Source: Urechidicola sp.
GTDB taxonomy: Bacteria; Bacteroidota; Bacteroidia; Flavobacteriales; Flavobacteriaceae
DNA: 64,000 nucleotides
NCBI GenBank assembly: GCA_965248525.1
Contig: CBDFJO010000003.1
Coordinates: 41,727 to 105,726, forward strand
Direction of reading: 5' to 3'
Below are positions 2,260 to 63,467 of this stretch, piece after piece. The notes under the pieces were generated by a model. It was given only the letters and a program-made list of their open reading frames with translations. It did not search any database and was not told where the DNA came from. The translations under genes were made by a program, and so were the position numbers. Positions within the stretch are counted from its first letter, which is position 1, and each line of letters begins with the position of its first letter.

Positions 2260-3537
2260 TTAGCCATCCCCTGTTTTTTTTAGAAATTCTAAATTAAGTT
2301 GTCCGCTACTCTCTATAGGCGGTATTTTTATTATATTCCATCTGCTTTTGGTTGGCATTAGTAGTATGGAAACCACCTTTGATATTTTGTAATAAATGAA
2401 ATTGATTAGTTCCCTCACACTCTGCCTGTTTAGATAGTTATAGCCTGCATTAAGCAACAAGTTAAAATGTAACGCTTGTATTTTCTTGTAAATCATATAC
2501 ATTGCCACAGTCAAAACAGCAAGCATTGACTGTAATCCATCAAAGGTTTTTAGTTGAATATCTTCCAATTTATATTCTTGTTTTATATGTCTGTGATATT
2601 CTTCTATTTTCCATCGTAAACCATACCCTTTAAAAGCCCATTTAGCAACTTCTATAGCTGTAGAAAGTTTGCTTTTGACAAGTAAATAACAGAGACCTCC
2701 GTGTCTTACATTTCTCGAAACGACTAACCACAATGAGAGTGTAACTCCCTTTATGGTGTAATTTATTGGGATTGCTCCTAATTGATACTCTTTTAAAACA
2801 GGTTTGTTTTTCTTTACCTTGGTCACTGTTTGTGTTATTGAAAAATCTATTTTTTTAAGAAGTTGGCTTACTTGTAACTCATTCTCTTTATGGTATAATT
2901 TTGTGTTTCTCTTCAAGCGAATGATTGTTTGTGAGCATTCACTGACAAAAAAATCTTTTAAAATACCACTATCTGCTCCTCTATCAAAAACCCAACAGCC
3001 TCTATGGGCTACATATTTCTGTACTTCTCTTACGGCTTTTTTTATTTCATTATTACTGCTTAATGCCCCCATTTCAAAACTATAAGCTTTGCTATAAAGA
3101 GGTGTTATTTCTTTATGATTGCTAATCACATTTATGTTTAAGACATTATAACCAAGTCCGATTTTGCTAGTATCACCATCCTTTACAAACTCCAAGCCCT
3201 CCATATATTTAGCATATTTTTTGCTGATGTCAGTACCGTCCATAAGAATAAAATTATCTTTTGAAATACTATTTCCAACGGTTTCAAGGTGAGTAGTCAT
3301 CACTTTTTCTGCATAATCTCCCTTTAAGTATTGAGCAGAAAGGCGCTTGCAAACATCTTTCAATTTTATAGACTCTCGTAAACTAGCTGCTATTTGATTT
3401 ACAAATACAGATTTTGACTTTAAAATTCCTAAAACCATCTCTTTTAAACAACGTGTTTCTGGTTTGGTCATTTCTGAATTAGATAAAAAATAGTCACTTA
3501 ATTGGGTTTGTATCTTTTTTGTTAGTATCTTGCTCAT
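2260..3537 (-). CDS. IS4-family DDE transposase
   Basis: DGT..., DRG..., YGLRWKIEEYHRHIK (Y-R-E-K signature); stop lies inside the TIR. Confidence 0.9.
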   Translation of the reverse strand: MSKILTKKIQTQLSDYFLSNSEMTKPETRCLKEMVLGILKSKSVFVNQIAASLRESIKLKDVCKRLSAQYLKGDYAEKVMTTHLETVGNSISKDNFILMDGTDISKKYAKYMEGLEFVKDGDTSKIGLGYNVLNINVISNHKEITPLYSKAYSFEMGALSSNNEIKKAVREVQKYVAHRGCWVFDRGADSGILKDFFVSECSQTIIRLKRNTKLYHKENELQVSQLLKKIDFSITQTVTKVKKNKPVLKEYQLGAIPINYTIKGVTLSLWLVVSRNVRHGGLCYLLVKSKLSTAIEVAKWAFKGYGLRWKIEEYHRHIKQEYKLEDIQLKTFDGLQSMLAVLTVAMYMIYKKIQALHFNLLLNAGYNYLNRQSVRELINFIYYKISKVVSILLMPTKSRWNIIKIPPIESSGQLNLEFLKKTGDG

Positions 3538-21016: not shown

Positions 21017-21096
21017 CCGTGTTGTAACCAGTACTTTTCCTAACTATCTTTTTATTCGAGGTGTTGTTGTTAGAATAGTAAAATAATCAATACTAT

Positions 21097-21446
21097 TTAA
21101 GATTTTAAACAACTTCGAATATTACAAAAATGTCCAATAATTGATGTTGAGAATAGAAACATTCCATATTCAAAAATTTCGGCACGTTCTTCGAGCAATA
21201 TGGATATCACAAAACCAGTAAAAACAATCCATAAAAACAGATTAATTCCTTTGGTGAAATTTCATTTTGTAGCTTTATAAATGGAAATAAATGCTGTCAA
21301 AACAAAGCCAAAAGCAATAATTGGATTACTCAGAAAACCAATTCCCATAGCTAAAAATGTAGGAACTGCAAGGCAATGGACGATACAGAGAATAGAACTA
21401 ATAACCCCTAATTTATCTGCCCAATATATTTTTTTGTTTGTATCAT
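21097..21446 (-). pseudogene. MerC-domain membrane protein, inactivated
   Basis: WADKLGVISSILCIVHCLAVP motif; -1 slip in A7 run near start and in-frame TGA at 21262-21264. Confidence 0.7.
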
Positions 21447-22756
21447 TTATTAAATGTTTTATTGTATTCTAGGTATTTTGTTTTATCGACTTTAACGGCA
21501 TTCCAAATGTCCAAAACCATTATTTCAATGCGTTTATCAACCAAATTTTGAATATCATTTCTATACGTTTGGTAATCGTCGTAATGTGTTTCAGATAAAT
21601 GATTGAATTTATTTTGAAAATAGGTCAAAGGATTAAACCAATAGGTTTTAGAAATAAATTCATTTTTAGACTGGCTATCGTCTTCTATATTGGCAGTAGC
21701 ATTTTTCATTACAATATTAATTAACGCTTCCATAGAATTTCGTCGTGCTCTTTTAATACTAATGCTATCTTTTGCTATTTCCGTTTGTTTTAAACTTGGG
21801 TATAAATCAAAAAGTTGCTTATCGATTATTTGGCTTTCTTGTTTATAGATGTCGGCTGTTTTGTCTCTTTTAGTGTCTATAATGTCAATCATTAAATTAG
21901 TTGGTTTTTCAATAGATATCCATTGTTGTATGGCAGCAGGAATAATAAATGCAAAAAGTAACCAAATTCCTATCATTTGTAAAGTATTTGAAATTGTATT
22001 TTCCCCATATTTCAGAATTAAAAAATAAATGACTGTCCAAAATATAAGATAAACTGCTACCCAAATAAAAATATTCCAAAACGTTGTATCTGTTTCAAAA
22101 ACATTGGTAAGCATAGCTCCATAAACTAATAAACCAAACAATATCGACAAAAGTAGTATAACGTAAAACGCAGTTCGTGATAGTATCCACCAATTTTTAG
22201 CCCCTGTTTGTACAAATACGAGTGGTAAAAAACCTTGCTCTGCTTCTAAACCTTTTATATTGTATAATAAAATCAGTAATAAAAGCGGTAATAGAAATAG
22301 GACTACAAATGAAAAATCTAATGTACCTGACTGAATACGCTCTGGATTGGCAATTTCTTTTGCCATATCTGAATCATAAGGACTACTTGATGTGCTAATT
22401 GCTTTATAGAACCCGTATTGTTCTGCTTGACCAATATTATAAACGATAGCTGGCGACGGTTTTTTATAATGGTAGGTTGGCGTATTCCAAATAGCCCAAA
22501 ATGGCTTTGTATTATCTACCCAAGGTCTATCTTTTGGTCCTTTTTCTCCGTTTTCGAAATAAGAGACTATAATTTCTTTTTTGGTTTCTGCTTCTTTAGT
22601 TATCCTTTCGATTTCGGCATTTTGCTTTTCATATAAATCTGCTCCATTTTGTAAACCATAAATACTTGCAATGATAAAAAGTATTAGTGCTACAATTTTA
22701 AAAGGACTACGGACAAAATGTTTATATTCGTATAAAAATATGTTTAAAGGTCTCAT
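21443..22756 (-). CDS. ABC-2 permease-like / DUF3526 membrane protein
   Basis: Multiple TM helices, LDFSFVVLFLLPL, operonic with 22753-24162. Confidence 0.75.
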   Translation of the reverse strand: MRPLNIFLYEYKHFVRSPFKIVALILFIIASIYGLQNGADLYEKQNAEIERITKEAETKKEIIVSYFENGEKGPKDRPWVDNTKPFWAIWNTPTYHYKKPSPAIVYNIGQAEQYGFYKAISTSSSPYDSDMAKEIANPERIQSGTLDFSFVVLFLLPLLLLILLYNIKGLEAEQGFLPLVFVQTGAKNWWILSRTAFYVILLLSILFGLLVYGAMLTNVFETDTTFWNIFIWVAVYLIFWTVIYFLILKYGENTISNTLQMIGIWLLFAFIIPAAIQQWISIEKPTNLMIDIIDTKRDKTADIYKQESQIIDKQLFDLYPSLKQTEIAKDSISIKRARRNSMEALINIVMKNATANIEDDSQSKNEFISKTYWFNPLTYFQNKFNHLSETHYDDYQTYRNDIQNLVDKRIEIMVLDIWNAVKVDKTKYLEYNKTFNK

Positions 22757-24162
22757 CCGTTTTCAATTTTTTTAGTTCCGAAATGAATAAGTATTATAAC
22801 CAGCACTGACCAAAAAGCTAGTAATACCAAGTCTAATAGATAGTTTGGTAAAACTTTGGAAAGCTTAGTGGGTTTATAATCAAAGTCAGGAACAGATTTA
22901 AAAAATCCGTTATCTTCTTTCCAACCCCAATCTCCTGTTTTAGAACCTCCGAAGGTTTGCTTATCGTTCAACATTTTAATAAAAACACGTCTATAATTTT
23001 CTACTTGCAACAAAAATTCTTGATGATGTAAGTTGTCACTAGCCATAAAACCCATACTGGTGTTTTGTAATGAGATAAATGGATTAACAATTCCTCCTAA
23101 TTGAAAGCTTTGCTTTTGTTCACGAAGAATCTTACGATTATTCCCAAAATGCTTGTCCCAAACACTATTTCCGTATTCTTCATCGGCTTGCATACGTATA
23201 CCATCAAAATTTATGGGTAGTTGCGATAAGTCATCTACATCATACTCTTTAAGTACTTTTTCTTTTAATGCTAAGCCTCTTTTGTCTCTTGGGTTGTGAC
23301 CGTCTATACCTGCAGAGCGGTCTTCTTTCATTGCGGTTTGAAATTGGTTTCTACTAGGAAGTGGATGCCATTTTTCTGCAGAACTCATTAAAATATTGGG
23401 TAAAAAAATCGTCCAAATTATCCAAATACCTAACATTGAAGTTAAAGCAAGTGTCGCGTTTTGCCATCGAGCAGAAAAGAAAACAGTAAGTCCACTAATA
23501 GTAAAATAGTATAAGGCGTAGGATAAAAAGAACAATCCTGTTCTGGTTAAAATTTCAGAAGTGATACTTTTAAGATTTAAAATGCCATAAACCACAACAA
23601 CAAAGCTTAATAGCAACAAACTATACAGCCAAACAGAAAGGGTTTTAGATAAAATAATTTGTAATGGTTTTGCACCTTGTAGTATGAGTAATTTTAGTCT
23701 TCCGCTTTGTTTTTCGCTACTAACTGAATTAAAGGCTAAAAAAATGAGTAAAAGTGGAACTATATATTGTAGTAGAAGTGAAGACTTTAATTTTCCAAAT
23801 CTTGAAATCGCCTGCATTTGCGATGCTTCAGAATGTATAATTTCATTTTGCACGTGTCCTTCAACACGAAGTACATTTCCTGTAACACTATTAACACCTT
23901 CATCTAAACTGCTCAATAAATTAGCAGGTTTAAACACATACGTGCCATAATGTGCTGCACTGTGAGGATTCATTTCGTCAATGCTTACCCATTGCTGACG
24001 TACATGGTCTTTAGCACTTTGATGTGTTTGTTCTTGCTTTTGTGTTTGATAATTTCCTAAAAAAACAGAGACTAACAAGATGGAAATAAAAGCAATGCTG
24101 ATACCTAAAAAAATACGACTACGGACTAAAAATCGCCATTCGTTTTTGATGATTTGCAACAT
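22753..24162 (-). CDS. ABC-2 permease-like / DUF3526 membrane protein
   Basis: NPHSAAHYGTYVFKP, SSEKQSGRLKLL. Confidence 0.78.
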   Translation of the reverse strand: MLQIIKNEWRFLVRSRIFLGISIAFISILLVSVFLGNYQTQKQEQTHQSAKDHVRQQWVSIDEMNPHSAAHYGTYVFKPANLLSSLDEGVNSVTGNVLRVEGHVQNEIIHSEASQMQAISRFGKLKSSLLLQYIVPLLLIFLAFNSVSSEKQSGRLKLLILQGAKPLQIILSKTLSVWLYSLLLLSFVVVVYGILNLKSITSEILTRTGLFFLSYALYYFTISGLTVFFSARWQNATLALTSMLGIWIIWTIFLPNILMSSAEKWHPLPSRNQFQTAMKEDRSAGIDGHNPRDKRGLALKEKVLKEYDVDDLSQLPINFDGIRMQADEEYGNSVWDKHFGNNRKILREQKQSFQLGGIVNPFISLQNTSMGFMASDNLHHQEFLLQVENYRRVFIKMLNDKQTFGGSKTGDWGWKEDNGFFKSVPDFDYKPTKLSKVLPNYLLDLVLLAFWSVLVIILIHFGTKKIENG

Positions 24163-24172
24163 AACATTCTTA

Positions 24173-24874
24173 TTAGTTTTGCATAAATTTTAAATACAAA
24201 TTTTCGAGTTCATTAGCACTTACATCTTCACTATTTAGTTCTTTAACTAAAATTCCATTTTTAAGAATACCAATGTGATTACATACCTCACGTACACGAA
24301 AAATATCATGTGAAGCCATTAAAATAGTTGCACCTTCTGAAGCTAATTTTTTTAGAAGAATAGAAAGTTCATTACTCGCTAAAGGGTCTAAACCACTCGC
24401 AGGTTCATCTAATAAATAGACCTTTGCTTTTTTTGCGTAAGCAATAGCAATGCCTACTTTCTGTCTCATTCCTTTGGAATATCCACTTACTTTTTTGGTA
24501 TGTTCCTTAGTTTCTAATCCGCAAATCGTTAGGTAGTTTTCAAGTTCATTTTTAGAATATTTTAATCCTGCTAACTTGCAGAAATAATCTAAATTTTCTG
24601 ATCCAGATAAATAAGGATATAGATTTACATTTTCAGGAATATAGCCAATAAGTTTTCTAGTCTCTTTTGAATTATGGATAGAGTCTATATCATTGATACG
24701 TATCTTTCCAAAATCTGGATTAAGAAACCCCAATAACATATTTATAGTAGTAGATTTTCCTGCACCATTTGCACCCAAAAGTCCTAAAATCTGACCTTTA
24801 TCGACTTCTAAATCTAAGTTTTGAATAGCGATATTTCCTTTAAATGACTTGCTAACGTTTTGTAATTGTATCAT
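24173..24874 (-). CDS. ABC transporter ATP-binding protein
   Basis: GANGAGKST, YSKGMRQ, LDEP, SHD. Confidence 0.92.
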   Translation of the reverse strand: MIQLQNVSKSFKGNIAIQNLDLEVDKGQILGLLGANGAGKSTTINMLLGFLNPDFGKIRINDIDSIHNSKETRKLIGYIPENVNLYPYLSGSENLDYFCKLAGLKYSKNELENYLTICGLETKEHTKKVSGYSKGMRQKVGIAIAYAKKAKVYLLDEPASGLDPLASNELSILLKKLASEGATILMASHDIFRVREVCNHIGILKNGILVKELNSEDVSANELENLYLKFMQN

Positions 24875-24890
24875 AAAAATAGCTTGTTAA

Positions 24891-24944
24891 TGCAACCAAG
24901 TTGCGAAAATAGAAAATAAAATTTGCAATTGCAACACAGTTGCA
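24891..24944. promoter_or_regulatory. Two palindromic TGCAAC-N3-GTTGC operator-like boxes
   Basis: tgcaaccaagttgcg (24891-24905) and tgcaacacagttgca (24930-24944) between divergent ABC and Fur-like genes. Confidence 0.55.
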
Positions 24945-24959
24945 TTAATTTTGTCATTA

Positions 24960-25263
24960 ATAAAAATTATTAGAAAAACAAAAGCTGTAACTATAGTACT
25001 CCAAATTTTTGAAGAGAGAAACGAAGCCAAATTAGTAGTGCGTCTCATAGAACTTTTAATGGAAAAGATGGTTTAAAGTGGTATGCTAAATGTGAGGGAT
25101 GTTCTGCTAATCATCATTCGGACAAGCATCCACATTTCCAATGCACTAAATGCGATAAAGTCGAGTGTTTGTCTTTAGATATTAAAATTCCTACCATAAA
25201 AATCATAAAGTAGATTCTTCAGACATTCTCTTAATGGGGCAATGTGAAGTTTGTAGTTTGTGA
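24960..25263 (+). pseudogene. Fur-family metalloregulator, decayed
   Basis: IIRKTKAV start without ATG; KWYAKC...HPHFQCTKC...GQCEVC; internal deletion and frameshifts. Confidence 0.72.
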
Positions 25264-25274
25264 GTATTGGTTAC

Positions 25275-25327
25275 AACATATGGATAACCCTATTGTGGTT
25301 ATATTTTATATTCTTGTCAACGATTAC
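25275..25327 (-). other. attI-like head fused to IS1182 terminal remnant
   Basis: aac-atatggataaccctattgtggttatat then tattcttgt(g)caacgattac. Confidence 0.7.
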
Positions 25328-25600
25328 TTGTGTTAGCAAAAGTGCTTATAAATTACAATGTTCAGCTTTCTCTCTTTTTTCTTCTGTAAAACGAAAGGTA
25401 AATTCAAATTCTAGTTCACTGATTTCTTTTCTATTTTCATAGTTTTCAATTTCAGTTAAACCAAGTTCACACTCTGAATTATTACCATAAATAAAAACAC
25501 GACTACCACTAATCTCTACAAATGGATCATAATTATTTATTAAAGGTTTTTTACCGTATTCATAAGCATTAAATAAGCGATTTAAAATTATTTCGGATGT

Positions 25601-26623
25601 TTAAATACCTAAGCTATTAAACAACTCTTTTAATTCCTTCATAGAAGGCCTAGGCGCATTAGGAGTTATGATATTTCCTTTTGGATCGATTAAAATGAAT
25701 CTTGGAATCCCTTCTATCTTATAGTTTTTTATAAACTCAGATTTCCCTGCTTTGTCAGCTAATAATTGAATTCCCCCTAGTTTTTTTTCTTTAATCATCG
25801 TTTTCCATTTGTCATAATCTTTAGGTTTGTCTATAGAAAGACTTACAAACTCAATGTTTTTACCGTGGTAAGCTTTCTCTACTTCTTTTAAGTAAGGAAT
25901 TTCAGCTAGACAAGGACGGCACCAAGTAGCCCAAACATCAATATAGACATACTTTCCTTTTAAATCATCTAAAGAAGTCTTTCCACCAGCATTGTTTTCA
26001 TATGCTATAAATTTTGGAGAGGTTTTTCCTTTTCCTAAAGCAGTTTTTATGTAAGATGCCTTTTCTTGAAGACTTCCTAGATATTTCTTTAATCTGGCAA
26101 ATCCTAATTTCTCGTTTGCAACAAAAGCAGTATCTAAACCAGATACTCCATCAAGGTTTTTCATGAAATCACTTTCAACAGTTTCTAATTTTGCAACGAA
26201 ATTTTCTTTGCTCATCTCAAACATAGTTTTATTTGCAAGAAGAGCCTCTTGGTTTAATATTTTTTTAGCTAAATAGTTATTAGCCTCAGCACCACTTCCA
26301 GTATAAACAATAGTTTCATCAAACTGCTTCGTGTCTAAAGTTAAATGTACATCTTGACCATTTTTAAGGTAAAGATCAGTATCTTCTGTCCCATCGGATA
26401 ACCAAAAACCACCAGTTACTACTTTTAAAGTATCACTAAAAGCACCATCAGTAGCAACAGTAATTCGCTTTTTAAAGTTTCCGTCTGTATCTGATATGAC
26501 TAAGGAGTCAGAATTTTGATTTGTTATTTTTCCTGAAAACGTAACATAGTCCTTAGCCTCTTGTTTACAGGCAACTACTATTAAAGCAGCAATAGTCAAG
26601 TACATTAATTTTTTTATTTTCAT
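25601..26623 (-). CDS. TlpA-family thioredoxin-like lipoprotein, copy 1
   Basis: Lipobox VVAC; WATWCRPC; IPRFILIDPKG. Confidence 0.88.
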   Translation of the reverse strand: MKIKKLMYLTIAALIVVACKQEAKDYVTFSGKITNQNSDSLVISDTDGNFKKRITVATDGAFSDTLKVVTGGFWLSDGTEDTDLYLKNGQDVHLTLDTKQFDETIVYTGSGAEANNYLAKKILNQEALLANKTMFEMSKENFVAKLETVESDFMKNLDGVSGLDTAFVANEKLGFARLKKYLGSLQEKASYIKTALGKGKTSPKFIAYENNAGGKTSLDDLKGKYVYIDVWATWCRPCLAEIPYLKEVEKAYHGKNIEFVSLSIDKPKDYDKWKTMIKEKKLGGIQLLADKAGKSEFIKNYKIEGIPRFILIDPKGNIITPNAPRPSMKELKELFNSLGI

Positions 26624-26666
26624 AATTTTTTGTTTTAAAGGTTAATGTTCATTTTACATTTTTACT

Positions 26667-26720
26667 AACATATGTATAACCCTATTGTGGTTATATTTTA
26701 TATTCTTGTGCAACGATTAC
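26667..26720 (-). other. attI-like head fused to IS1182 terminal remnant
   Basis: aac-atatgtataaccctattgtggttatat then tattcttgtgcaacgattac. Confidence 0.7.
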
Positions 26721-26990
26721 TTGTGTTAGCAAAAGTGCTTATAAATTACAATGTTCAGCTTTCTCTCTTTTTTCTTCTGTAAAACGAAAGGTAAATTCAA
26801 ATTCTAGTTCACTGATTTCTTTTCTATTTTCATAGTTTTCAATTTCAGTTAAACCAAGTTCACACTCTGAATTATTACCATAAATAAAAACACGACTACC
26901 ACTAATCTCTACAAATGGATCATAATTATTTATTAAAGGTTTTTTACCGTATTCATAAGCATTAAATAAGCGATTTAAAATTATTTCGGA

Positions 26991-28013
26991 TTAAATACCT
27001 AAGCTATCAAACAACTCTTTTAATTCCTTCATAGAAGGCCTAGGCGCATTATGAGTTATGATATTTCCTTTTGGATCGATTAAAATGAATCTTGGAATCT
27101 CTTCTATCCTATAGTTTTTTAAAAACTCAGATTTCCCTGTTGTTGTTCTGTCAGCTAATAATTGAATTCCCCCTAGTTTTTTTTCTTTAATCATCGTTTT
27201 CCATTTGTCATGATCTTTAGGTTCGTCTATAGAAAGACTTACAAACTCAATGTTTTTACCGTGGTAAGCTTTCTCTACTTCTTTTAAGTAAGGAATTTCA
27301 GCTAGACAAGGACGGCACCAAGTAGCCCAAATATCAATATAGACATACTTTCCTTTTAAATCATCTAAAGAAGTCTTTCCACCAGCATTGTTTTCATATG
27401 CTATAAATTTTGGAGAGGGTTTTCCTTTTCCTAAAACAGTTTTTATGTAAGATGCCTTTTCTTGAAGAATTCCTAGAAATCTCTTTAATCCGACAAATCC
27501 TAATTTCTCGCTTGCAACAAAAGCAGTATCTAAACCAGATACTCCATCAAGGTTTTTCATAAAATCACTTTCAATAGTTTCTAATTTTGCATCGAAATCT
27601 TCTTTGCTCATCTCAAGCAGAGTTTTATTTGTAAAAAGATCTCCTTGGTTTAATACTTTTTTAGCTAAATAGTTATTAGCCTCAGCACCACTTCCAGTAT
27701 AAACAACAGTTTCATCAAACTGCTTCGTGTCTAAAGTTAAATGTACATCTTGACCATTTTTAAGGTAAAGATTAGTCTGTTCTTTCCCATCTTGTAACCA
27801 AAAACCACCAGTTACTACTTTTAAAGTATCACTAAAAGTACCATCAGCAGCAACAGTAATTCGCTTTTTAAAGGTTCCGAATCCTATGAGTAAGGAGTCA
27901 GAATTTTGATTTGTTATTTTTCCTGAAAACGTAACATAGTCCTTAGCCTCTTGTTTACAGGCAACTACTATTAAAGTAGCAATAGTCAAGTACATTAATT
28001 TTTTCATTTTCAT
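26991..28013 (-). CDS. TlpA-family thioredoxin-like lipoprotein, copy 2
   Basis: Paralog of 25601-26623; WATWCRPC. Confidence 0.88.
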   Translation of the reverse strand: MKMKKLMYLTIATLIVVACKQEAKDYVTFSGKITNQNSDSLLIGFGTFKKRITVAADGTFSDTLKVVTGGFWLQDGKEQTNLYLKNGQDVHLTLDTKQFDETVVYTGSGAEANNYLAKKVLNQGDLFTNKTLLEMSKEDFDAKLETIESDFMKNLDGVSGLDTAFVASEKLGFVGLKRFLGILQEKASYIKTVLGKGKPSPKFIAYENNAGGKTSLDDLKGKYVYIDIWATWCRPCLAEIPYLKEVEKAYHGKNIEFVSLSIDEPKDHDKWKTMIKEKKLGGIQLLADRTTTGKSEFLKNYRIEEIPRFILIDPKGNIITHNAPRPSMKELKELFDSLGI

Positions 28014-28078
28014 AATTTTTTGTTTTAAAGGTTTAAAGGTTAATGTTCAAAGGTTAATGTTCATTTTATATTTTTACT

Positions 28079-28127
28079 AACATACGTATAACCTATTGTG
28101 GTTATATTTTATACGTCCGCAAATGTA
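28079..28127 (-). promoter_or_regulatory. Array head: attI-like site with TAnnTTTG promoter box firing into the array
   Basis: Minus strand tacatttg (28120-28127) ... tataaccacaataggttata-cgtat-G|TTAGT. Confidence 0.68.
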
Positions 28128-40674: not shown

Positions 40675-41643
40675 ATGTTTTCATATTTTAAATCAAAAGA
40701 AAAAAATAGAAATGCTTTTACAATTGCATTTTATAACCTCGAAAATCTATTTGATACCGTTGATGACCCAAAAACGTTTGATGATGATTTTACTTCAGGC
40801 GGAAAATTGAAATGGAATAAAAAAAGATATTTTAAGAAAATTAGTAAGTTGAGCTATGTAATAAAACAATTGGGAACAGAAAAATCGTTTGTTCCTCCAG
40901 TACTTGTTGGTGTTGCAGAAGTTGAAAACAAAAAAGTTTTAGAAGATTTAGTTCGTTCTAAAAACCTACAAAAATTTCATTATAATTATGTGCATTATGA
41001 TTCTCTAGACGACAGAGGAATTGATGTAGGATTGCTATACAACAAGCAATTATTTGAGTTACTACATTCTGAACGATTCTCTCTGTATATAGAAAATGAA
41101 GAAGGTGAGCAAGACTTTACTCGTGATGTCTTATTAGTCAAAGGAAACTTTAATGGTGAATTGATGTATATACTTGTCAATCATTGGCCTTCGCGAAGAC
41201 AAGGTACGGAAGAGTCAGAATATAAACGTGTAAAAGCATCAGAATTAAATAGAGAAATTATTGATAAAATACGCCTTGAAGATGAAAAAGCAAAAATTGT
41301 TGTCATGGGTGATTTTAATGACAATCCAACAAATAAGAGCATTCAAAATCTAATCAAAGAGGACTTTTACAATCCTATGCAAAGTTTGCTTTCAAAAAGA
41401 AAAGGTACACTAAAGCATAAAGATGATTGGTACTTGTTTGACCAAATTATTTTTTCTAAAAACTTTATAGAAGTTAAAGAGCACCAACATTCGTTTAAAT
41501 ATGCCGAGGTTTTTGACCGTGATTTTCTAAAAGTTTTTAAAGGGAAAAACAAAGGGAAACCTTTTAGAACATTTATTGGACCTTGGTATCAAGGAGGTTT
41601 TAGCGATCATTTTCCTGTATATGTGTATTTGAAGAAAAATTAG
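40675..41643 (+). CDS. Endonuclease/exonuclease/phosphatase (EEP) family protein, no signal peptide
   Basis: FYNLENLFDT, NHWPSR, GDFND, SDHFP. Confidence 0.88.
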   Translation: MFSYFKSKEKNRNAFTIAFYNLENLFDTVDDPKTFDDDFTSGGKLKWNKKRYFKKISKLSYVIKQLGTEKSFVPPVLVGVAEVENKKVLEDLVRSKNLQKFHYNYVHYDSLDDRGIDVGLLYNKQLFELLHSERFSLYIENEEGEQDFTRDVLLVKGNFNGELMYILVNHWPSRRQGTEESEYKRVKASELNREIIDKIRLEDEKAKIVVMGDFNDNPTNKSIQNLIKEDFYNPMQSLLSKRKGTLKHKDDWYLFDQIIFSKNFIEVKEHQHSFKYAEVFDRDFLKVFKGKNKGKPFRTFIGPWYQGGFSDHFPVYVYLKKN

Positions 41644-46169: not shown

Positions 46170-47216
46170 ATGAAACATATTTCCCTTTTTGCCACAACTT
46201 TTTTTCTTGTCGGAAATATGACCTTTTCACAAGATAAAAACTACCAAATAAGAACACTTGCTTTTTATAACCTTGAGAATCTTTTTGATACGATTGACAA
46301 CACAGCAAAGAATGATGAGGCGAGTCCGATGATGGAGTTGAAGGGTAATAAGTCAAAAGTTTATTGGGATAAAATTGATAAACTTGGAAGTGTCCTTTCT
46401 AAAATAGGTGTTGAAAAAGCAAAGAACAGTCCTGCAATAATTGGAGTTGTAGAGATTGAAAATGATACAGTTTTAAGAGATCTGGTTGCTGGAAAGTTTC
46501 TAAAAGATAAGCGATACAGTATTATACATTATGAATCTCCAGACAAAAGGGGAATTGATGTAGGACTGTTATATCAGCCACGTTATTTTAAGCCTGTAAA
46601 TCATGAAAGCTTTGAATTATTGATTTATGATAATGAAGGAGAACGAATTTTCACAAGAGATCAACTATTAGTTTCAGGGTATTTAGATGGAGAAATGATA
46701 CACGTAATCGTTAATCATTGGCCATCAAAAAGAGGAGGAACAAGAAGCATCCCTTTTAGAGAAAAAGCTGCAGCATTGAATTTGAAAATCATAGAACAGA
46801 TTCGTGAAAACGAACCAAATGCTAAAATTATAACGATGGGAGATTTTAATGATGATCCTATTGAAAGCAGTTTTAAGAAAATAATGAAAACAAAGAAGAA
46901 AAAGAAGAATGTAAAAGAAAATGATATTTACAATCCTTTTGAAAACATGTTTATAAGAGGTTTTAATACCGCAGGTTATAGAGATAATATCAATCTGTTT
47001 GACCAAATCCTTATTAGTTCTCAATTATTAACAACGACCAAAGAATTTTCTACTTACAAAATGTTAAAAGCGGGAATTTACAATCCTAAATACTTAATAA
47101 ACAGCAAAGGAAGGTATAAGGGCTACCCTTTTAGAAGTTTTTCTTGGGGGATATACACAGGAGGTTATAGCGATCACTATCCTTCTTACATGTACCTTAT
47201 CAAAGAGAAAAAATAA
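46170..47216 (+). CDS. Secreted EEP-family nuclease/phosphatase
   Basis: Signal peptide; FYNLENLFDT, NHWPS, GDFND, SDHYP. Confidence 0.88.
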   Translation: MKHISLFATTFFLVGNMTFSQDKNYQIRTLAFYNLENLFDTIDNTAKNDEASPMMELKGNKSKVYWDKIDKLGSVLSKIGVEKAKNSPAIIGVVEIENDTVLRDLVAGKFLKDKRYSIIHYESPDKRGIDVGLLYQPRYFKPVNHESFELLIYDNEGERIFTRDQLLVSGYLDGEMIHVIVNHWPSKRGGTRSIPFREKAAALNLKIIEQIRENEPNAKIITMGDFNDDPIESSFKKIMKTKKKKKNVKENDIYNPFENMFIRGFNTAGYRDNINLFDQILISSQLLTTTKEFSTYKMLKAGIYNPKYLINSKGRYKGYPFRSFSWGIYTGGYSDHYPSYMYLIKEKK

Positions 47217-47287: not shown

Positions 47288-48328
47288 ATGAAACATTTTT
47301 TAAGTACGCTTGTAGTATTATTTTTCGTTTTATTTTCTTTTTCTCAACAAAAAGAATATAAAATTAAAACGATTGCTTTTTACAATCTCGAAAATTTATT
47401 TGACACGATTGATAATCCTGATAAAAAGGATGAATATAGTCCTATTCTTCAAATGAAGTCAGGAAAAGAGACTGCTTACACTCAAAAGAGCGATAATATG
47501 GCAAAGGTAATTTCTGAAATAGGAAAAGAGAAAACTAGGAAAAGCCCTTCAATTATTGGTGTTTGTGAAATTGAAAATAGTGATGTGCTTGATGATTTAT
47601 TGAAAAACAAGAATTTAAAAAATGAAGGTTACAACTATGTTCATGTTGATTCTCCAGATTGGCGGGGAATTGACGTTGCATTGATTTATAAAGAATCTGA
47701 TTTTAGTGTTTCAAATTTTAAAACATACGAACTCAAAGCATGGAATAGTGAAGGATACCGTGTTAAAACTCGCAGTCAATTATTGGTTTCAGGATATTTA
47801 GACGGCGAATTAATCCATATTATAGTTAATCATTGGCCATCACAACGTGGAGGCGCAAAAAAATCGGAATATTTAAGAGTAAAATCAGCAGAGTTAAACC
47901 TTAAAATTATTGAAGATATCTATTTTGAAGAGCCAAATGCTAAAATAATTACGCTAGGTGATTTTAATGACAATCCAGATGCAAAAAGCATCAAAAAAAC
48001 CTTAGATTCTAAAGAGAAAAAGATAAACGCAGGGAATTTATACAATCCTTTCGCGAATATGTATAAAAGAGGTTTTGGCTCGTTAGGTTTTCTTGACAAT
48101 ATGAATTTGTTTGATCAAATCTTATTTACATCTAATTTTTTATCAGAAGATGTTAGAGATTATGATTCGTATAAATTTTACAAAACAACTATTTTCAACC
48201 CAAATTATTTAACCACACGAAAAGGAAGGTATAAAGGCTATCCGTTTAGAAGCTGGTCAAACGGAAAATTTACGGGAGGATATAGCGATCATTATCCTGT
48301 TTATGTATATTTGATTAAAGAGAAGTAA
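47288..48328 (+). CDS. Secreted EEP-family nuclease/phosphatase (paralog)
   Basis: Signal peptide; same motifs. Confidence 0.88.
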   Translation: MKHFLSTLVVLFFVLFSFSQQKEYKIKTIAFYNLENLFDTIDNPDKKDEYSPILQMKSGKETAYTQKSDNMAKVISEIGKEKTRKSPSIIGVCEIENSDVLDDLLKNKNLKNEGYNYVHVDSPDWRGIDVALIYKESDFSVSNFKTYELKAWNSEGYRVKTRSQLLVSGYLDGELIHIIVNHWPSQRGGAKKSEYLRVKSAELNLKIIEDIYFEEPNAKIITLGDFNDNPDAKSIKKTLDSKEKKINAGNLYNPFANMYKRGFGSLGFLDNMNLFDQILFTSNFLSEDVRDYDSYKFYKTTIFNPNYLTTRKGRYKGYPFRSWSNGKFTGGYSDHYPVYVYLIKEK

Positions 48329-56420: not shown

Positions 56421-57503
56421 ATGTATCTTTCGTACTATAATCAAAACTGTAATAAAATGTATAAACCCAGAGGGAAAAAAGGATTATTTGATGAAGAATT
56501 TACAAAAGATCGCTTATCATCAATAGGCAATCCATTAGAAAACATAAGTAAAGTTATTGATTTTGAATTATTTAGAGAATTGCTAGAGCATAAGTTACTC
56601 AACACTAACAAAAAAAGCAATGCAGGAGCAAAACCTTATGACTTGGTAATGATGTTTAAAATATTGATACTTCAACGTTATTATGGTTTAGGAGATAGTC
56701 AAGTTGAATATCAAATATTAGATAGAATGAGTTTTAAAACATTTTTAGGATTAGAGACTGGCGATAAAGTACCAGATGAAAAAACCGTATGGAGTTTTAG
56801 AGAACGTGTAACAAAAACAGGTTTAGTAGAAGAATTATTTGAGCAGTTTACTTTCTTTTTAGAAGAAAAAAAACTCATATTTAATGAAGGACAATTGATT
56901 GATGCCAGTTTTACAGTAGCACCACGCCAAAGAAACACAAGGAAAGAAAACAAGAAAATAAAAGACGGTAAGGGTAATGAATTATGGAATGACAAACCCA
57001 ACAAGAAAAAACATAAAGATATTGATGCACGTTGGACAAAGAAAAATGGTGAAACTTTCTTTGGTTATAAAAATCACGCAAAGGTAGGCACTAAAAGTAA
57101 ATTCATTAACACTTACACAGTAACAGACGCCTCGGTTCACGACTCACAAGCTTTGGATGACTTGCTTACCGAAAAAGATAAAAACCAAGATTTACACGCA
57201 GATAGTGCATACACAGGCAAAGAGCAAGATAAGATTATCAAAAAATATGAAATGAAAAATAAAGTACACGAAAAAGGCTATCATAATAAACCATTGACAG
57301 AGAAACAAAAAGCAAGCAACACTAAAAAATCAAAAATTAGAGCAAGAGTAGAGCATGTATTTGGCTTTATGGAGCAAAGTATGAAAGGTTTAGTTTTAAA
57401 ATCAGTAGGAATTATAAGAGCATCAGGAATAATTGGTTTAATCAACTTAACCTACAATTTATTTAGGTATGAACAAATCAAAAGATTAAACATAACTTAC
57501 TGA
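56421..57503 (+). CDS. IS5-family transposase
   Basis: PDEKTVWSFRE, IDASF, DIDARW, ADSAY, RARVEHVFG; likely start at MYKPRG. Confidence 0.9.
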   Translation: MYLSYYNQNCNKMYKPRGKKGLFDEEFTKDRLSSIGNPLENISKVIDFELFRELLEHKLLNTNKKSNAGAKPYDLVMMFKILILQRYYGLGDSQVEYQILDRMSFKTFLGLETGDKVPDEKTVWSFRERVTKTGLVEELFEQFTFFLEEKKLIFNEGQLIDASFTVAPRQRNTRKENKKIKDGKGNELWNDKPNKKKHKDIDARWTKKNGETFFGYKNHAKVGTKSKFINTYTVTDASVHDSQALDDLLTEKDKNQDLHADSAYTGKEQDKIIKKYEMKNKVHEKGYHNKPLTEKQKASNTKKSKIRARVEHVFGFMEQSMKGLVLKSVGIIRASGIIGLINLTYNLFRYEQIKRLNITY

Positions 57504-58248: not shown

Positions 58249-59286
58249 TTATTTTTTATTTTCTTCTATTATCTCTTTTCTTTTTTGAGATATTTCTAAA
58301 TTGTATTTCCACTTTTTATTGTAATCAACATTTTCTCTCATTTTTGCATACTCAATCGCTTTGTCATAATTACCAAGAGCATAATTCACTCCAGAAATAT
58401 TGCTCAATATACTCCAGTAAACCTTTTTTTGTTTTTTATCAGTTTTATCCTTTATTTTTTTTAGTTCGTTTTCAAAATGAGTTAAACTCTCTTTTGCAAT
58501 GCTCTTTAAGTTTTCTTTATAGGTATCGCTAAATTTCAATTTATTCATTTCGATTAATTTTTCAACTTGGTCATTGTTTTTTATTCCAAATTTTTCTTCC
58601 TTTTTAATAAAAAATAAATTTATTCTTTTGGCTTCATAATAAGTAGAAAATTTTGATTTTAAAGATTTAGAAATATCTCCTATTACATAATCTGCTTGGT
58701 TCATGTTTTTACTAGAACGATATTCAATTGCATTTGCATTATACTGCTTTTTGATTTGAGATAATGCTATTCCATTAGATTTTATGGATGCATTATTAAA
58801 AACTTCAGCACTTTCTGTTTTGCTTTTTTGTGTAAAAACTTTATCAAAAAGAATATTTTTTTTGGTGTCTGTTACTACGACCTTAATTGATGAAGATATT
58901 TCAACAATACCTGTATAAGTGTTTTTTGCATCTTTACCATAGTTTTTTTTCTCTTTTACACTTAATATGTGTTTTATACCTAAATCAGTTAATTCTATAA
59001 TGAAATCAGGATTTTCTGATTTTGTAAAACCAGGGATTTTTAATGAACGGTCAATAAGGATCGAAATATTTGTGTTCTTAAATGAAGAAGACTTTTGTTC
59101 TCCGTTTATTATTAATCTTACATTATCACTATTAGAATTTACTTTTACAGCGTAATTTTGATACTCAACAGGTAATTTAATTTCTGGGTAATGTTTTTCT
59201 TCAATATACCAACCTTTATTTTTTGCGTTTTGTGCTGATAAATTGATACTTACTAATGTTAATAGTAATAAAATGAATTTTTTCAT
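58249..59286 (-). CDS. Cassette-borne secreted hypothetical protein (C-terminal TPR-like)
   Basis: Signal peptide MKKFILLLL...SA; ends match gt|tagcaaac and gtttgctaac. Confidence 0.7.
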   Translation of the reverse strand: MKKFILLLLTLVSINLSAQNAKNKGWYIEEKHYPEIKLPVEYQNYAVKVNSNSDNVRLIINGEQKSSSFKNTNISILIDRSLKIPGFTKSENPDFIIELTDLGIKHILSVKEKKNYGKDAKNTYTGIVEISSSIKVVVTDTKKNILFDKVFTQKSKTESAEVFNNASIKSNGIALSQIKKQYNANAIEYRSSKNMNQADYVIGDISKSLKSKFSTYYEAKRINLFFIKKEEKFGIKNNDQVEKLIEMNKLKFSDTYKENLKSIAKESLTHFENELKKIKDKTDKKQKKVYWSILSNISGVNYALGNYDKAIEYAKMRENVDYNKKWKYNLEISQKRKEIIEENKK

Positions 59287-59308: not shown

Positions 59309-59357
59309 AACGTATGGATAACCCTATTGTGGTTATATCTTATATGTCTGCAAGTTA
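59309..59357 (-). promoter_or_regulatory. Array head: attI-like site with degenerate promoter box
   Basis: Minus strand taacttg...ataaccacaatagggttatccatac-G|TTAGC; matches 28079, 26667 and 25275. Confidence 0.65.
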
Positions 59358-61720: not shown

Positions 61721-63467
61721 GTGCCTGTTGCACAAGATACAATTAATTTCACAAAAATAATAATAATAAGGTTTTAAATTATTTTGTTAATCCATTGATA
61801 TTAAGTATCTTTATACATGCAAGGAAAGAAAATATACCAAGAAAAGTTGTTTGCTAATTTTCAGTTAAGCGACCGAGTTCCCAAGAACAATTTTTATCGA
61901 AGATTACATAAAGTTTTAGATTTAGACTTTTTGTATAAACTCACAAGACCATTTTATGGAGAGAGTGGACAGGAGAGTATTGATCCTATAGTTTTCTTTA
62001 AACTTTGTTTAGTAGGATATTTAGAAAACATCATAAGCGATCGCAAATTAATCTCTCATTGTGCAATGCGGTTAGATATTTTGTATTTTATAGGTTATGA
62101 TATTGATGAGCCATTACCTTGGCATTCTACCATAAGTCGTACCCGACAATTATATACAGAAGCAGTATTTGAAGAATTTTTTACCAAAGTATTACAAATG
62201 TGTATAAACAAAGGGATGGTTTCTGGTCATACCCAAGCCATAGATTCTGCACCTATAAAAGCCAATGCTTCTATGGATACATTGGAACTAAAAGTACCTG
62301 CCGAAGAACTAGAAGATTATTTACTCAAGGTTCGTCATATTAGCGATGTAGATAAACCCAAGAATACACGTAAAGCAAAAGAGAATAAGGCAAGTAAGGA
62401 GCAACAAACTGTTACTGCAAAGCCAAGTGAATTACAAGCCATAAAAAGCAGAAATAAAAAATGGTCTAAAGACCAGAATTATCGTCCAGGGGCAGGAAAT
62501 AAGGGATCTAAATATACATCCAACAAAACCCATTATAGTCCAACCGATCCAGATGCTCGGATAAGTGTCAAGCCAGGCAAAGCTAGGAAGCTCAACTATA
62601 GTAGTCAACTAAGTGTAGATACGGGTCATCATGTGATAACAGATATTAAAGCCTATCATGCAGATAAAAAAGACAGTCAATGTTTAGAAGATATCACTGT
62701 TCGATTAAAAAAGCGCTTAGATAAAAACGGATTACTTTGGCAAAACATATTGGCAGATACAGGCTATAGTGATGGTAGCAATTATGCCTTTTTAGAAACC
62801 GAAGCCTTAGAAAGTTATATCCCACCACATGGAACTTACAAAGGAGGACCAGAAGGTTTTTTATATGATAAAGAACAAGATTGTTATATATGTCCACAAG
62901 GAAAAACAATACCGTTTAAAAAAGTGTTTAGAGATTATAAAACAGGTACAAAAAAGAAAGAATATAGATGTTCATCACTAATTTGTAAGACTTGCCCTAT
63001 AAAGCAACAATGTTTGGGCAAAACTGCACAAGAAAAGAAGTTTACTGTAACCTATTATCGAGAAGAATATGAACGCAATAACAAAAGAGTAAACTCCAAA
63101 CAAGGACGTTATATGAAATACAAACGCAGTAGTACTGTTGAGCCTGTTTTTGGGACCCTCACTCAATTTATGGGACTCCGTAAAATAAATACGATTGGTA
63201 TTCAACAAGCCAACAAGGTCATGCATATGGCTGCAATTGCTTATAATATCAAGAAATACCTAAAATTCACTAGCAAAACTGTACAAACTAACAAGCAAAG
63301 ACTTGCTTTTTACTTATATCAAATAAAAGAGGCAATAGTACTTCAAATAAGCAACTTTAAACCAGTTAAAAATTTAGAATTTGTATGAATTTTAAAATAG
63401 GGTTTCTCTAAAAAATCGCTTAGGTCAACTTTTTTGGATTGATTTTATATTCTTGTGCAACGATTAC
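61721..63467 (+). mobile_element. IS1182-family element, complete
   Basis: 16-bp imperfect TIR GTgcctGTTGCACAAG / rc GTaatcGTTGCACAAG; 4-bp CATT duplication. Confidence 0.88.
61817..63388 (+). CDS. IS1182-family transposase
   Basis: GQESIDP, PWHSTISR, AIDSAP, TDPDAR, LADTGY, CxxCP..C, RSSTVEPVFG. Confidence 0.9.
   Translation: MQGKKIYQEKLFANFQLSDRVPKNNFYRRLHKVLDLDFLYKLTRPFYGESGQESIDPIVFFKLCLVGYLENIISDRKLISHCAMRLDILYFIGYDIDEPLPWHSTISRTRQLYTEAVFEEFFTKVLQMCINKGMVSGHTQAIDSAPIKANASMDTLELKVPAEELEDYLLKVRHISDVDKPKNTRKAKENKASKEQQTVTAKPSELQAIKSRNKKWSKDQNYRPGAGNKGSKYTSNKTHYSPTDPDARISVKPGKARKLNYSSQLSVDTGHHVITDIKAYHADKKDSQCLEDITVRLKKRLDKNGLLWQNILADTGYSDGSNYAFLETEALESYIPPHGTYKGGPEGFLYDKEQDCYICPQGKTIPFKKVFRDYKTGTKKKEYRCSSLICKTCPIKQQCLGKTAQEKKFTVTYYREEYERNNKRVNSKQGRYMKYKRSSTVEPVFGTLTQFMGLRKINTIGIQQANKVMHMAAIAYNIKKYLKFTSKTVQTNKQRLAFYLYQIKEAIVLQISNFKPVKNLEFV

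Follow-up and report, generated by a model that had tools for sequence, protein, structure and literature searches.

Two adjacent genes in the marine flavobacterium Urechidicola sp. raise the question of how a pair of gene copies can come to differ almost exclusively in codons that change the protein. Both lie on the minus strand of a 64,000-nucleotide stretch of contig CBDFJO010000003.1 (assembly GCA_965248525.1, positions 41,727 to 105,726), hereafter called the window, and each encodes a TlpA-like lipoprotein of 340 amino acids: copy A at 25601..26623, identified by its open reading frame (ORF), Pfam matches, an AF2 model and Foldseek, and copy B, the more derived of the two, at 26991..28013, identified by its ORF and by Pfam matches over residues ~197-323. 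We give a probability of roughly 0.62 to the reading that these are tandem, cassette-borne genes that were recently acquired, then duplicated, and have been under episodic positive and largely directional selection. No new kind of mechanism is involved, and nothing was found that needs one.

The two copies sit within a direct repeat with a period of ~1390 nt. In a protein-guided codon alignment they differ by 41 replaced codons, two 2-codon indels and a single codon with a silent change only (TTC/TTT, third base 26165/27561). The adjoining 3' flank is identical over 281 nt (25318-25598 and 26711-26991, 100% identity), and a six-sequence alignment shows no A/B mismatch among its 271 aligned bases. 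An initial reading of the pair from the bare sequence, without database searches (the sequence-only reading), had described a tandem pair with about 40 replacements, two 2-codon indels, one silent change and an identical flank. All of these details were correct, as was its remark that the motif WCRPC is untouched between the copies. Its impression that the changes cluster toward the N-terminus is weak for the A/B differences by themselves (25 of 169 sites in the N-domain vs 12 of 145 in the thioredoxin (Trx) domain) and becomes clear once the changes on the stem shared by both copies are added (45/169 vs 17/145; chi-square ~10.9, calculated by hand). No ORF of at least 60 amino acids in another frame overlaps A or B, and we therefore rejected an overlapping gene in whose frame the changes would be silent.

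In a search of a 5.8-billion-cluster protein collection, the nearest relative of A and B has 82% identity. DNA from four metagenomic relatives served as outgroups (P0004 = L047; P0005 = L051/L053/L054; P0003 = L055; P0007 = L001, the last from a metagenome-assembled genome labelled Flavobacterium). Against these, A and B show a silent divergence (dS) of 0.05-0.13 and a replacement divergence (dN) of ~0.10, with a dN/dS ratio (omega) of 0.9-1.9; omega is 0.3-0.46 among the four outgroups and 0.10-0.16 to a Pseudotenacibaculum homologue. Parsimony places 38 nucleotide changes, one of them silent, on the stem of A and B, fixed against all four outgroups. Counted in codons, ~34 replaced and 1 silent are common to both copies relative to the four relatives. 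On the terminal branches, A gained 11 changes (11-14 across analyses), none silent and ten at first codon positions, and B gained 24 (24-32 across analyses), which makes B about twice as derived as A; 11 A/B changes were left unpolarised. Such asymmetry of rate, and of hits at conserved positions, is usual for duplicates. The sequence-only reading had proposed strong selection after a recent duplication. Selection is upheld but its confinement to the time after duplication is not, since the ~34 shared codons were replaced before the copies arose.

Between A and B, the Nei-Gojobori method (NG86) counts 4.5 silent and 43.5 replacement differences (Sd and Nd) and gives a dN/dS of 2.56, five codons with multiple hits supplying most of Sd. 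Pairwise maximum likelihood (Goldman-Yang, F3x4) yields an omega of 3.1, with p=0.023 in a likelihood-ratio test (LRT) against 1. A branch model was fitted to six taxa (A, B and the four outgroups) with the stem, A and B as foreground. It gave an omega of 5.1 in the foreground (omega_fg) and 0.375 in the background (omega_bg), with an LRT of 16.8 against omega=1 (p=4e-5) and of 38.7 against the background value (p=5e-10). When codons with at least two differences and columns at most 3 codons from an indel were left out, omega_fg was 7.8 (p=0.0045). In these tests omega ranges from 2.6 to 7.8, neither near nor below 1, and the near-exclusive replacement change seen by eye stands up to formal codon alignment.

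The same conclusion is reached by permutation, in which the observed from>to changes were placed randomly on positions with the same base so that the mutation spectrum was kept. Here, 16.6 silent codons were expected and 3 were observed, next to 73 replaced, and none of 20,000 runs came down to 3 or fewer. The stem, A and B are each significant as single branches (0.003, 0.026 and 0.028). In one alignment, lineage-specific changes are 4 silent to 66 replacement for the window lineage and 44:43 for the outgroup tips. Positive selection is the best reading of this excess of replacement over silent change. A whole-gene count of 3 silent and 73 replacement codons is a large signal for a bacterial gene and, to our knowledge, bacterial genes rarely show a whole-gene dN/dS well above 1 along three branches in succession. 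As in other cases of adaptive divergence between recent duplicates, omega exceeds 1 around the duplication, B evolves faster and the core of the fold is conserved. Unlike usual duplicate divergence, the acceleration predates the duplication and spans three consecutive branches.

A neutral yardstick is provided by the non-coding tail that extends ~270 nt past the stop codon on the minus strand (25342..25600 for copy A and 26735..26990 for copy B; the two tails differ by nothing but a 3-nt indel at the stop codon). It resembles a reading frame that has decayed, and in the relatives it is kept but with stop codons, a frameshift and a 10-nt deletion. Between window and relatives it has diverged by 0.048-0.107, as much as the silent sites of the gene, and we therefore consider it a fair neutral reference. 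Measured with this yardstick, ~0% separates the two copies and 1-3% separates the window lineage from its relatives, whereas replacement sites differ by 5.6% and ~10%, respectively. An 84-codon frame running past the stop codon was rejected as a protein domain: a domain search of it was empty and the frame is broken in the relatives.

Genes next to the array behave differently. Compared with their nearest relative in the collection, L056, which carries no cassette at this place, PaaE has a dS of 0.46 and an omega of 0.145, and LysE a dS of 0.59 and an omega of 0.114. The Exo_endo_phos_3 paralogues of the window have dS >1.4 and omega 0.17-0.34. Since the adjacent genes and this other tandem pair evolve normally, the anomaly is local to the tlpA gene, and genome-wide relaxed selection was rejected (neighbour omega 0.11-0.15). 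The Exo_endo_phos_3 genes are three in number (40675-41643, 46170-47216 and 47288-48328, plus strand), two of them adjacent; they are old duplicates and surround a pair consisting of a CarboxypepD_reg-domain gene (TonB-dependent-receptor-like) and a DUF5689 gene. A further control is found in L054, where a cassette for a 171-aa lipoprotein is duplicated in tandem (L054:246-1569) upstream of the tlpA cassette. That pair differs by 2 changes (1 silent, 1 replacement) in 516 coding nt and by 7 in ~146 nt of end site. This is the ordinary pattern, and cassette duplication as such therefore does not yield the pattern of the tlpA pair.

The proteins themselves are predicted, from sequence and model, to be TlpA/ResA-like thioredoxin-fold lipoproteins that take part in thiol-disulfide exchange. 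Their N-terminus, MK(I/M)KKLMYLTIA(A/T)LIVVAC, was read by eye as a signal peptide with a lipobox, and its Cys19 is invariant in the family. The lipid-bearing Cys is followed by CKQEAKD, with no acidic run; in Bacteroidetes surface lipoproteins, an acidic run after the lipid Cys is the mark of export to the cell surface. Three Pfam families (Redoxin, AhpC-TSA and Thioredoxin_8) match above cut-off over residues ~197-323, and profile matches include 2lja at 1e-50, ResA and TlpA. An AF2 model built with 118 relatives (pLDDT 92.3) comprises a beta-sandwich (27-108), a helical region (112-195) and a Trx fold (199-340). In Foldseek only the Trx-fold domain finds matches, 2lja being the best, followed by 4ka0, other Bacteroides TlpA-like proteins, ResA and TlpA (target TM 0.8-0.87). 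The N-terminal domain of ~175 residues has no Pfam match and no solved structure among the top matches. A and B thus share with the periplasmic thiol-disulfide oxidoreductases of TlpA/ResA/CcmG type, including the Bacteroidota TlpA lipoproteins 2lja, 4ka0 and 3fkf, the C-terminal Trx fold of 140 residues, the CXXC motif and the cis-Pro loop. The signal peptide and lipobox are likewise those of TlpA family lipoproteins, and relatives are named "TlpA family protein disulfide reductase" by NCBI and JGI. They depart from the family norm in their unmatched N-terminal domain, in WCRPC and in a basic mature protein.

The replacements respect the constraints of this family. In an alignment of 118 relatives, replaced sites have an entropy of 1.65-1.84 bits, compared with 0.98 for unreplaced sites (p=6e-9), and their entropy distribution is that of the sites that vary among the slow relatives. 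C235, P237, C238 and I306-P307 are invariant across the 118 relatives and present in both copies; neither copy has lost a catalytic cysteine, the cis-proline or any of some 45 invariant residues. Several changes in the Trx domain lie close, by sequence position, to the CXXC motif and the cis-Pro loop. WCGPC is found in 98 of the 118 relatives, and A and B have Arg at X1. In the Trx-domain loop ADKAW-KSE, a Trp present in 99 of the 118 has become Gly in both copies. Copy B additionally carries a 2-codon insertion in this loop and a Gly>Glu change beside the cis-Pro. Since the replacements avoid family-conserved columns and the catalytic residues are kept, we regard the change as adaptive rather than as decay. 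The net charge of the mature protein is +3 in A and +1 in B, -2 to -7 in the five closest relatives and -10 +/- 6 in the family; the replacements thus add about 3-10 charge units. Where the sequence-only reading spoke of diversifying selection, the selection is supported, while a shift of charge from -2..-7 to +3/+1 makes the pattern look directional rather than purely diversifying.

The repeat unit that carries each gene appears to be a mobile gene cassette, a point missed by the sequence-only reading. It is ~1.4 kb long, starts with GTTAG(C/T)AAAA, and a complementary box, TTTTGCTAAC, lies close to its end. The contigs of the four relatives are homologous to the window only within the unit (window 26669..25328), and the neighbours differ in every contig. 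The left boundary falls at the identical base, right after GTT, in three contexts: ..ATGTT / AGTAAAAATG in the window, ..AACCGTT / AGCAAAAATG in L054 and ..GACCGTT / AGCAAAAATG in L055. The bounds of a cassette, G/TT and a complementary inverse core (..AAC), are present for tlpA as GTTAGCAAAA and TTTTGCTAAC. In the relatives, TTTTGCTAAC exactly complements the cassette start G+TTAGCAAAA, and the window start, GTTAGTAAAA, has one mismatch. This inverse-core-like (R'') box, the complement of the start, lies on the minus strand at 26725..26734 at the end of cassette B and at 25332..25341 at the end of cassette A. Other marine flavobacteria share the cassette at a silent divergence of 5-13%, compared with ~50% between the flanking core genes and their nearest known relative, so the cassette arrived recently or has been exchanged often. 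Relatives of the gene with ~91% identity, including the tail, are present in marine metatranscriptomes; the cassette family is therefore expressed in nature. A reading of the unit as a terminal-inverted-repeat transposon was dropped for the cassette reading after the boundaries had been compared, and a search of the unit for structured RNA gave no Rfam match at E<=1 except one chance miRNA match.

Three minus-strand elements delimit the two cassettes. The junction element between them (26667..26724), recognised from repeat families D5/D6 and its sequence, reads ACAA, GTAATCGTTGCACAAGAATATAAAAT, the core ATAACC-ACAATAG-GGTTAT, ACATAT and GTT, and the GTT opens the next cassette. The one after cassette A (25275..25331) has one base missing and one changed, and is followed by unique DNA starting GTTGTAACCA. 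The upstream palindromic site, before cassette B (28079..28122), has a different left half, being composed of TTGCGGACGTATAAAAT, the core, ACGTAT and GTT; its architecture is that of the site after the tyrosine recombinase gene in L062, L067 and L079. In the window tlpA cassettes the long end site seen in the relatives gives way, 4 nt past the ..AAC box, to an element of 61 nt, and the first 26 nt of this element match the end of an insertion sequence (IS) exactly. The 5' leader of copy A (26624..26666, minus strand) is homologous to that of the relatives and has the same start base after GTT. The leader of copy B (28014..28078, minus strand) holds a tandem duplication of AACATTAACCTTT at 28035-28061, which occurs neither in A nor in the relatives and could alter the expression of B.

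Under the reading that we favour, the cassette would consist of the TlpA/ResA-like lipoprotein gene, a decayed tail of ~260 nt and a recombination-site-like end, and the array of cassettes would be flanked by the LysE gene on one side and by core genes on the other, in the genome of a marine member of the Flavobacteriaceae. Before the duplication, ~34 codons were replaced, including the change from WCGPC to WCRPC and that from the conserved Trp to Gly in the Trx-domain loop. After it, both copies kept changing, by at least 11 nt in A and at least 24 in B, with silent sites and the tail nearly unchanged. The replacements settled on family-variable positions, more densely in the N-terminal domain, and turned the mature protein from acidic to basic. 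Probably the protein was adapting, in a new host or niche, the way in which it recognises a partner or substrate, and the role of copy B may have become new or altered. The duplication could have been produced by re-insertion of the cassette or by unequal crossing-over between junction elements.

The source sample bears on several of the alternatives. Its four runs were read as Logan contigs with a depth of 3-8x. A-specific and B-specific contigs are about as deep as the unique flanks, consistent with two copies in each genome, and the junction element 26667..26724 reaches a k-mer depth of 30-40x compared with 3-8x around it, with many loose ends on both sides. Variant letters in these contigs all equal the state of the other copy; no third state was seen, at a depth too shallow for rare variants. 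The simplest explanation is that paths through the assembly graph cross from one paralogue to the other. At window position 25603, one public contig of run X2 has 15 extra nt, AATACCTAAGCTATT, inserted where copy A has its stop codon, which would duplicate the last five codons and could be a strain variant or an assembly error.

The first alternative is that A and B are old paralogues under concerted evolution, in which gene conversion wipes out neutral differences while selection keeps the amino-acid differences. We consider this unlikely. It would account for an identical flank and nearly identical silent sites, and for 11 of the A/B differences the states are found segregating in the relatives as well. 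Public contigs from the source sample alternate between the states of A and B and might include recombinants, with graph artefacts being the more likely cause. However, the 44 differing nucleotides have a mean spacing of ~20 nt, a length below which any conversion tracts would need to stay, and the ~34 replacements shared relative to the relatives, with one silent change, are left unexplained. Moreover, no relative with A-like or B-like states is known from a 15-billion-protein collection, in which the 90% clusters of A and B contain a single member each, and the tandem pair of L054 shows the opposite pattern, its non-coding part being more diverged than its coding part. Conversion from a different paralogue in the window was rejected as well: neither another tlpA paralogue nor a donor sharing 16-mers was found there, so the neutral gene conversion from other paralogues that the sequence-only reading had named as counting against its own view has no source within the window.

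Traces of the cassette system are found outside the window too. The three window junctions share the palindromic core TATAACC-ACAATAG-GGTTATA. An exact 20-mer of this core was found in 24 JGI metagenome contigs, one copy apiece and frequently at the end of the contig, and in these contigs identical left flanks are joined to different right flanks directly after ..TGTT. In three locus groups a tyrosine recombinase gene supplies the left flank with its 3' end, with "XerA / integron integrase" and "integron integrase" as its best NCBIfam matches. At 8 of 21 distinct metagenomic junctions the reverse complement of the 9-10 nt that follow the junction recurs downstream, compared with 11 of 418 cross-controls (2.6%), and at the five junctions with a preceding ORF of at least 60 codons this complement box lies 2-19 nt past the stop codon. 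Units with a GTTnnnnnn start and nnnnnnAAC downstream were found in L054, L057-L059, L063, L066, L067, L072 and L076, and in the window at 20154-20020; L072 equals L067 plus one unit inserted at the recombinase-proximal position. Eight end sites of ~135 nt, each circularised with its own start, have a consensus fold with R''/R' and L''/L' helices and unequal spacers. In these sites, taken from the relatives and from a window unit with a 168-aa ORF, compensatory changes affect 14 of 20 pairs; since the sites had been selected by their R pairs, only the other pairs are independent evidence. Separately, we observed that sites of ~47-61 nt with a 7-7-7 core and a GTT end, at 28122-28079, 26720-26667, 25327-25275 and 59336-59309 (all minus strand) and at loci L057-L080, precede secreted, lipoprotein or defence-type genes, and that ~40 nt left over from the recombinase 3' end stand in front of the copy at 59336.

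The tlpA-type units resemble the cassettes of integrons and of clusters of attC sites lacking an integron integrase (CALIN) in having one gene or operon, a GTT start and an ..AAC box after the ORF. The ~135-nt sites appear to have R''/L''/L'/R'-like helices, with variable sequence and kept structure, and the units are inserted beside a tyrosine recombinase gene, the same unit recurring in different arrays. Unlike in integrons, the boxes are 9-10 nt long and not 7, the recombinase points in the same direction as the cassettes and falls short of the curated integron-integrase cut-off, and the window tlpA cassette ends in a short 61-nt element in a window without an integrase. IntegronFinder 2.0 reports one complete integron in Bacteroidota, in Salinibacter ruber (PMC9024848), and Bacteroidota are listed among the phyla with integrons (PMC8618304). 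By analogy we call the system integron-like and make no claim to its membership among integrons. Going further, one may propose that marine Flavobacteriaceae have an unrecognised integron-like system, with a co-oriented Xer/IntI-like recombinase, a palindromic entry site, long end boxes and an IS 4 nt past the boxes, and that passage through it (excision, single-stranded intermediates, re-insertion, duplication) would drive or permit bursts of protein evolution at well over the neutral rate; this combined proposal seems to us quite improbable. If true, cassette arrays would be sites of rapid remodelling of lipoprotein genes and not just gene stores.

Relaxed constraint, a second alternative and a still less probable one, would have the duplicated genes possibly silent and drifting toward pseudogenes, the missing silent changes being due to chance. 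Some conserved residues have indeed been replaced, among them the middle residue of CXXC and the conserved Trp, and genes in cassette arrays are known in integrons to be poorly expressed at times. Yet omega=1 is rejected (p=4e-5; 0/20,000 permutations), both 340-codon frames are intact, and the replacements shun conserved columns (p=6e-9). The catalytic Cys pair, the cis-Pro and the invariant residues are kept, and the shift in charge is directional.

We think it very unlikely that the tandem pair is an assembly artefact, in which two strain alleles of a single-copy cassette were joined at the repeated junction element. That element is multi-copy in the sample, as its 30-40x depth indicates against 3-8x around it, the public short contigs all break at it, and depth is low. 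Nevertheless, A- and B-specific contigs have a depth of 3.6-6.5 against 3.4-7 for the unique flanks, not half of it; the window is part of a 480-kb contig, and its three junctions differ in sequence. Even if the artefact were real, the dN/dS result would be unchanged.

Least credible of all is a targeted diversification, by a system like the diversity-generating retroelements (DGRs) or by mutagenesis of a single-stranded intermediate, that raises the mutation rate of the gene and leaves selection to filter the products; the sequence-only reading had offered such a mechanism as one of its explanations. The coding region does have 48 differences against none in the adjacent 271-nt tail, integron-type cassettes are generally known to pass through single-stranded intermediates, and A and B resemble DGRs in that nearly all repeat differences change amino acids. 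But a process blind to the reading frame cannot deplete silent changes, so selection would still be needed. Unlike DGRs, the pair has no adenine pattern and no short variable region, its changes spanning the whole gene over 1 kb. No reverse transcriptase (RT) domain was found among the 40 scanned window ORFs of at least 150 aa, and no template repeat or specificity for adenine or another base was seen, all twelve substitution types occurring; DGRs and other retroelements were rejected on these grounds. The transition/transversion ratio (kappa) is ~3.6 over the whole tree, the spectrum of the window lineage resembles that of the outgroup branches, and G>A vs C>T changes (20:4 in the window lineage, 20:9 on outgroup branches) follow base composition. 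A GC>AT or strand-biased mutation pressure was likewise rejected: both directions are present, the asymmetry is alike in the outgroups, and the permutation conditions on the spectrum.

Several points weigh against the reading of cassette-borne genes under positive selection. Its strong result needs the four metagenomic outgroups, whose orthology is uncertain, as mobile cassettes may be paralogues, and leans on codon models in our own implementation; the pairwise test by itself is moderately significant (p=0.02). Multi-nucleotide changes and the two indel regions feed the signal, although the result holds without them. Conserved positions are hit in B (E126G, Y181F, V230I and G305E) and by the Trp>Gly change in both copies, which fits a partial loss of function too. 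The tandem join is backed by depth only, the short public contigs not spanning the repeat. On the side of the cassette, the recombinase scores lie below the curated cut-offs (174 bits vs 265 for TIGR02249 and 180 vs 220 for NF040815), no integrase is found in the window, and the defining combination of an IntI-type integrase and attI is thus missing there. The 61-nt element with its 7-7-7 hairpin folds no better than shuffled sequences (z -1.1 to -1.4), and we rejected it as a stable attC-like hairpin.

The remainder of the array follows the tlpA genes on the minus strand, in the order palindromic site (28122-28079), cassette B, cassette A, a 4.25-kb unit, an IS fragment and the unit with the 168-aa ORF. 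The 4.25-kb unit (21021..25277, minus strand) starts with GTTGTAACCA and ends with the exact complement, TGGTTACAAC, with the IS end 4 nt on. It encodes an ABC ATPase (24173-24874) and two DUF3526 permeases (22753-24162 and 21443-22756) and, if it is a cassette, would be unusually large. Between this ABC operon and cassette A, short broken frames on the plus strand (24951-25213) include one that ends in ..HSDKHPHFQCTKCDKVECL, which we take to resemble the C-terminus of a Fur-family regulator, and TGCAAC..GTTGCA palindromes lie at 24890-24945; together they may be a decayed regulator and its operator. The 168-aa ORF unit (20681..~20020, minus strand) has a long end site at 20154-20020.

The complete IS (~61740-63467, with its end at 63467) carries a DDE_Tnp_1_6/DUF772 transposase gene (61817-63388, plus strand). 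Copies of its end at 51401-51312 and 21025-20808 also lie 4 nt past an ..AAC box. The IS end, GTAATCGTTGCACAAGAATATAAAAT, always follows ..AAC by 4 nt and stands between the R''-like box and the rest of the end site, a sequence arrangement which suggests that the IS targets cassette end sites. With three DDE transposase genes in 64 kb (2260-3537, 56421-57503 and 61817-63388) the region is rich in IS. A G+C-rich structured stretch at 58238-58150 (minus strand, GGCGGCTCTCCTCAATCTTGAGGAGAGTGCGCC...) is unlike its AT-rich surroundings; it follows a 345-aa secreted ORF (58249-59286) and a box, GTTTGCTAAT, and the DDE transposase gene at 56421-57503 lies further on.

Under the reading that we favour, the signal would mark a protein whose interactions changed quickly. 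Many TlpA-like lipoproteins of Bacteroidota have no assigned role, and this pair, together with its slowly evolving close relatives, may offer an entry point to their substrates and to recognition by the N-terminal domain. The cassette context would link the capture and duplication of a gene to its later adaptive evolution, and it points to cassette systems in marine Flavobacteriaceae, members of a phylum in which integrons are considered very rare.

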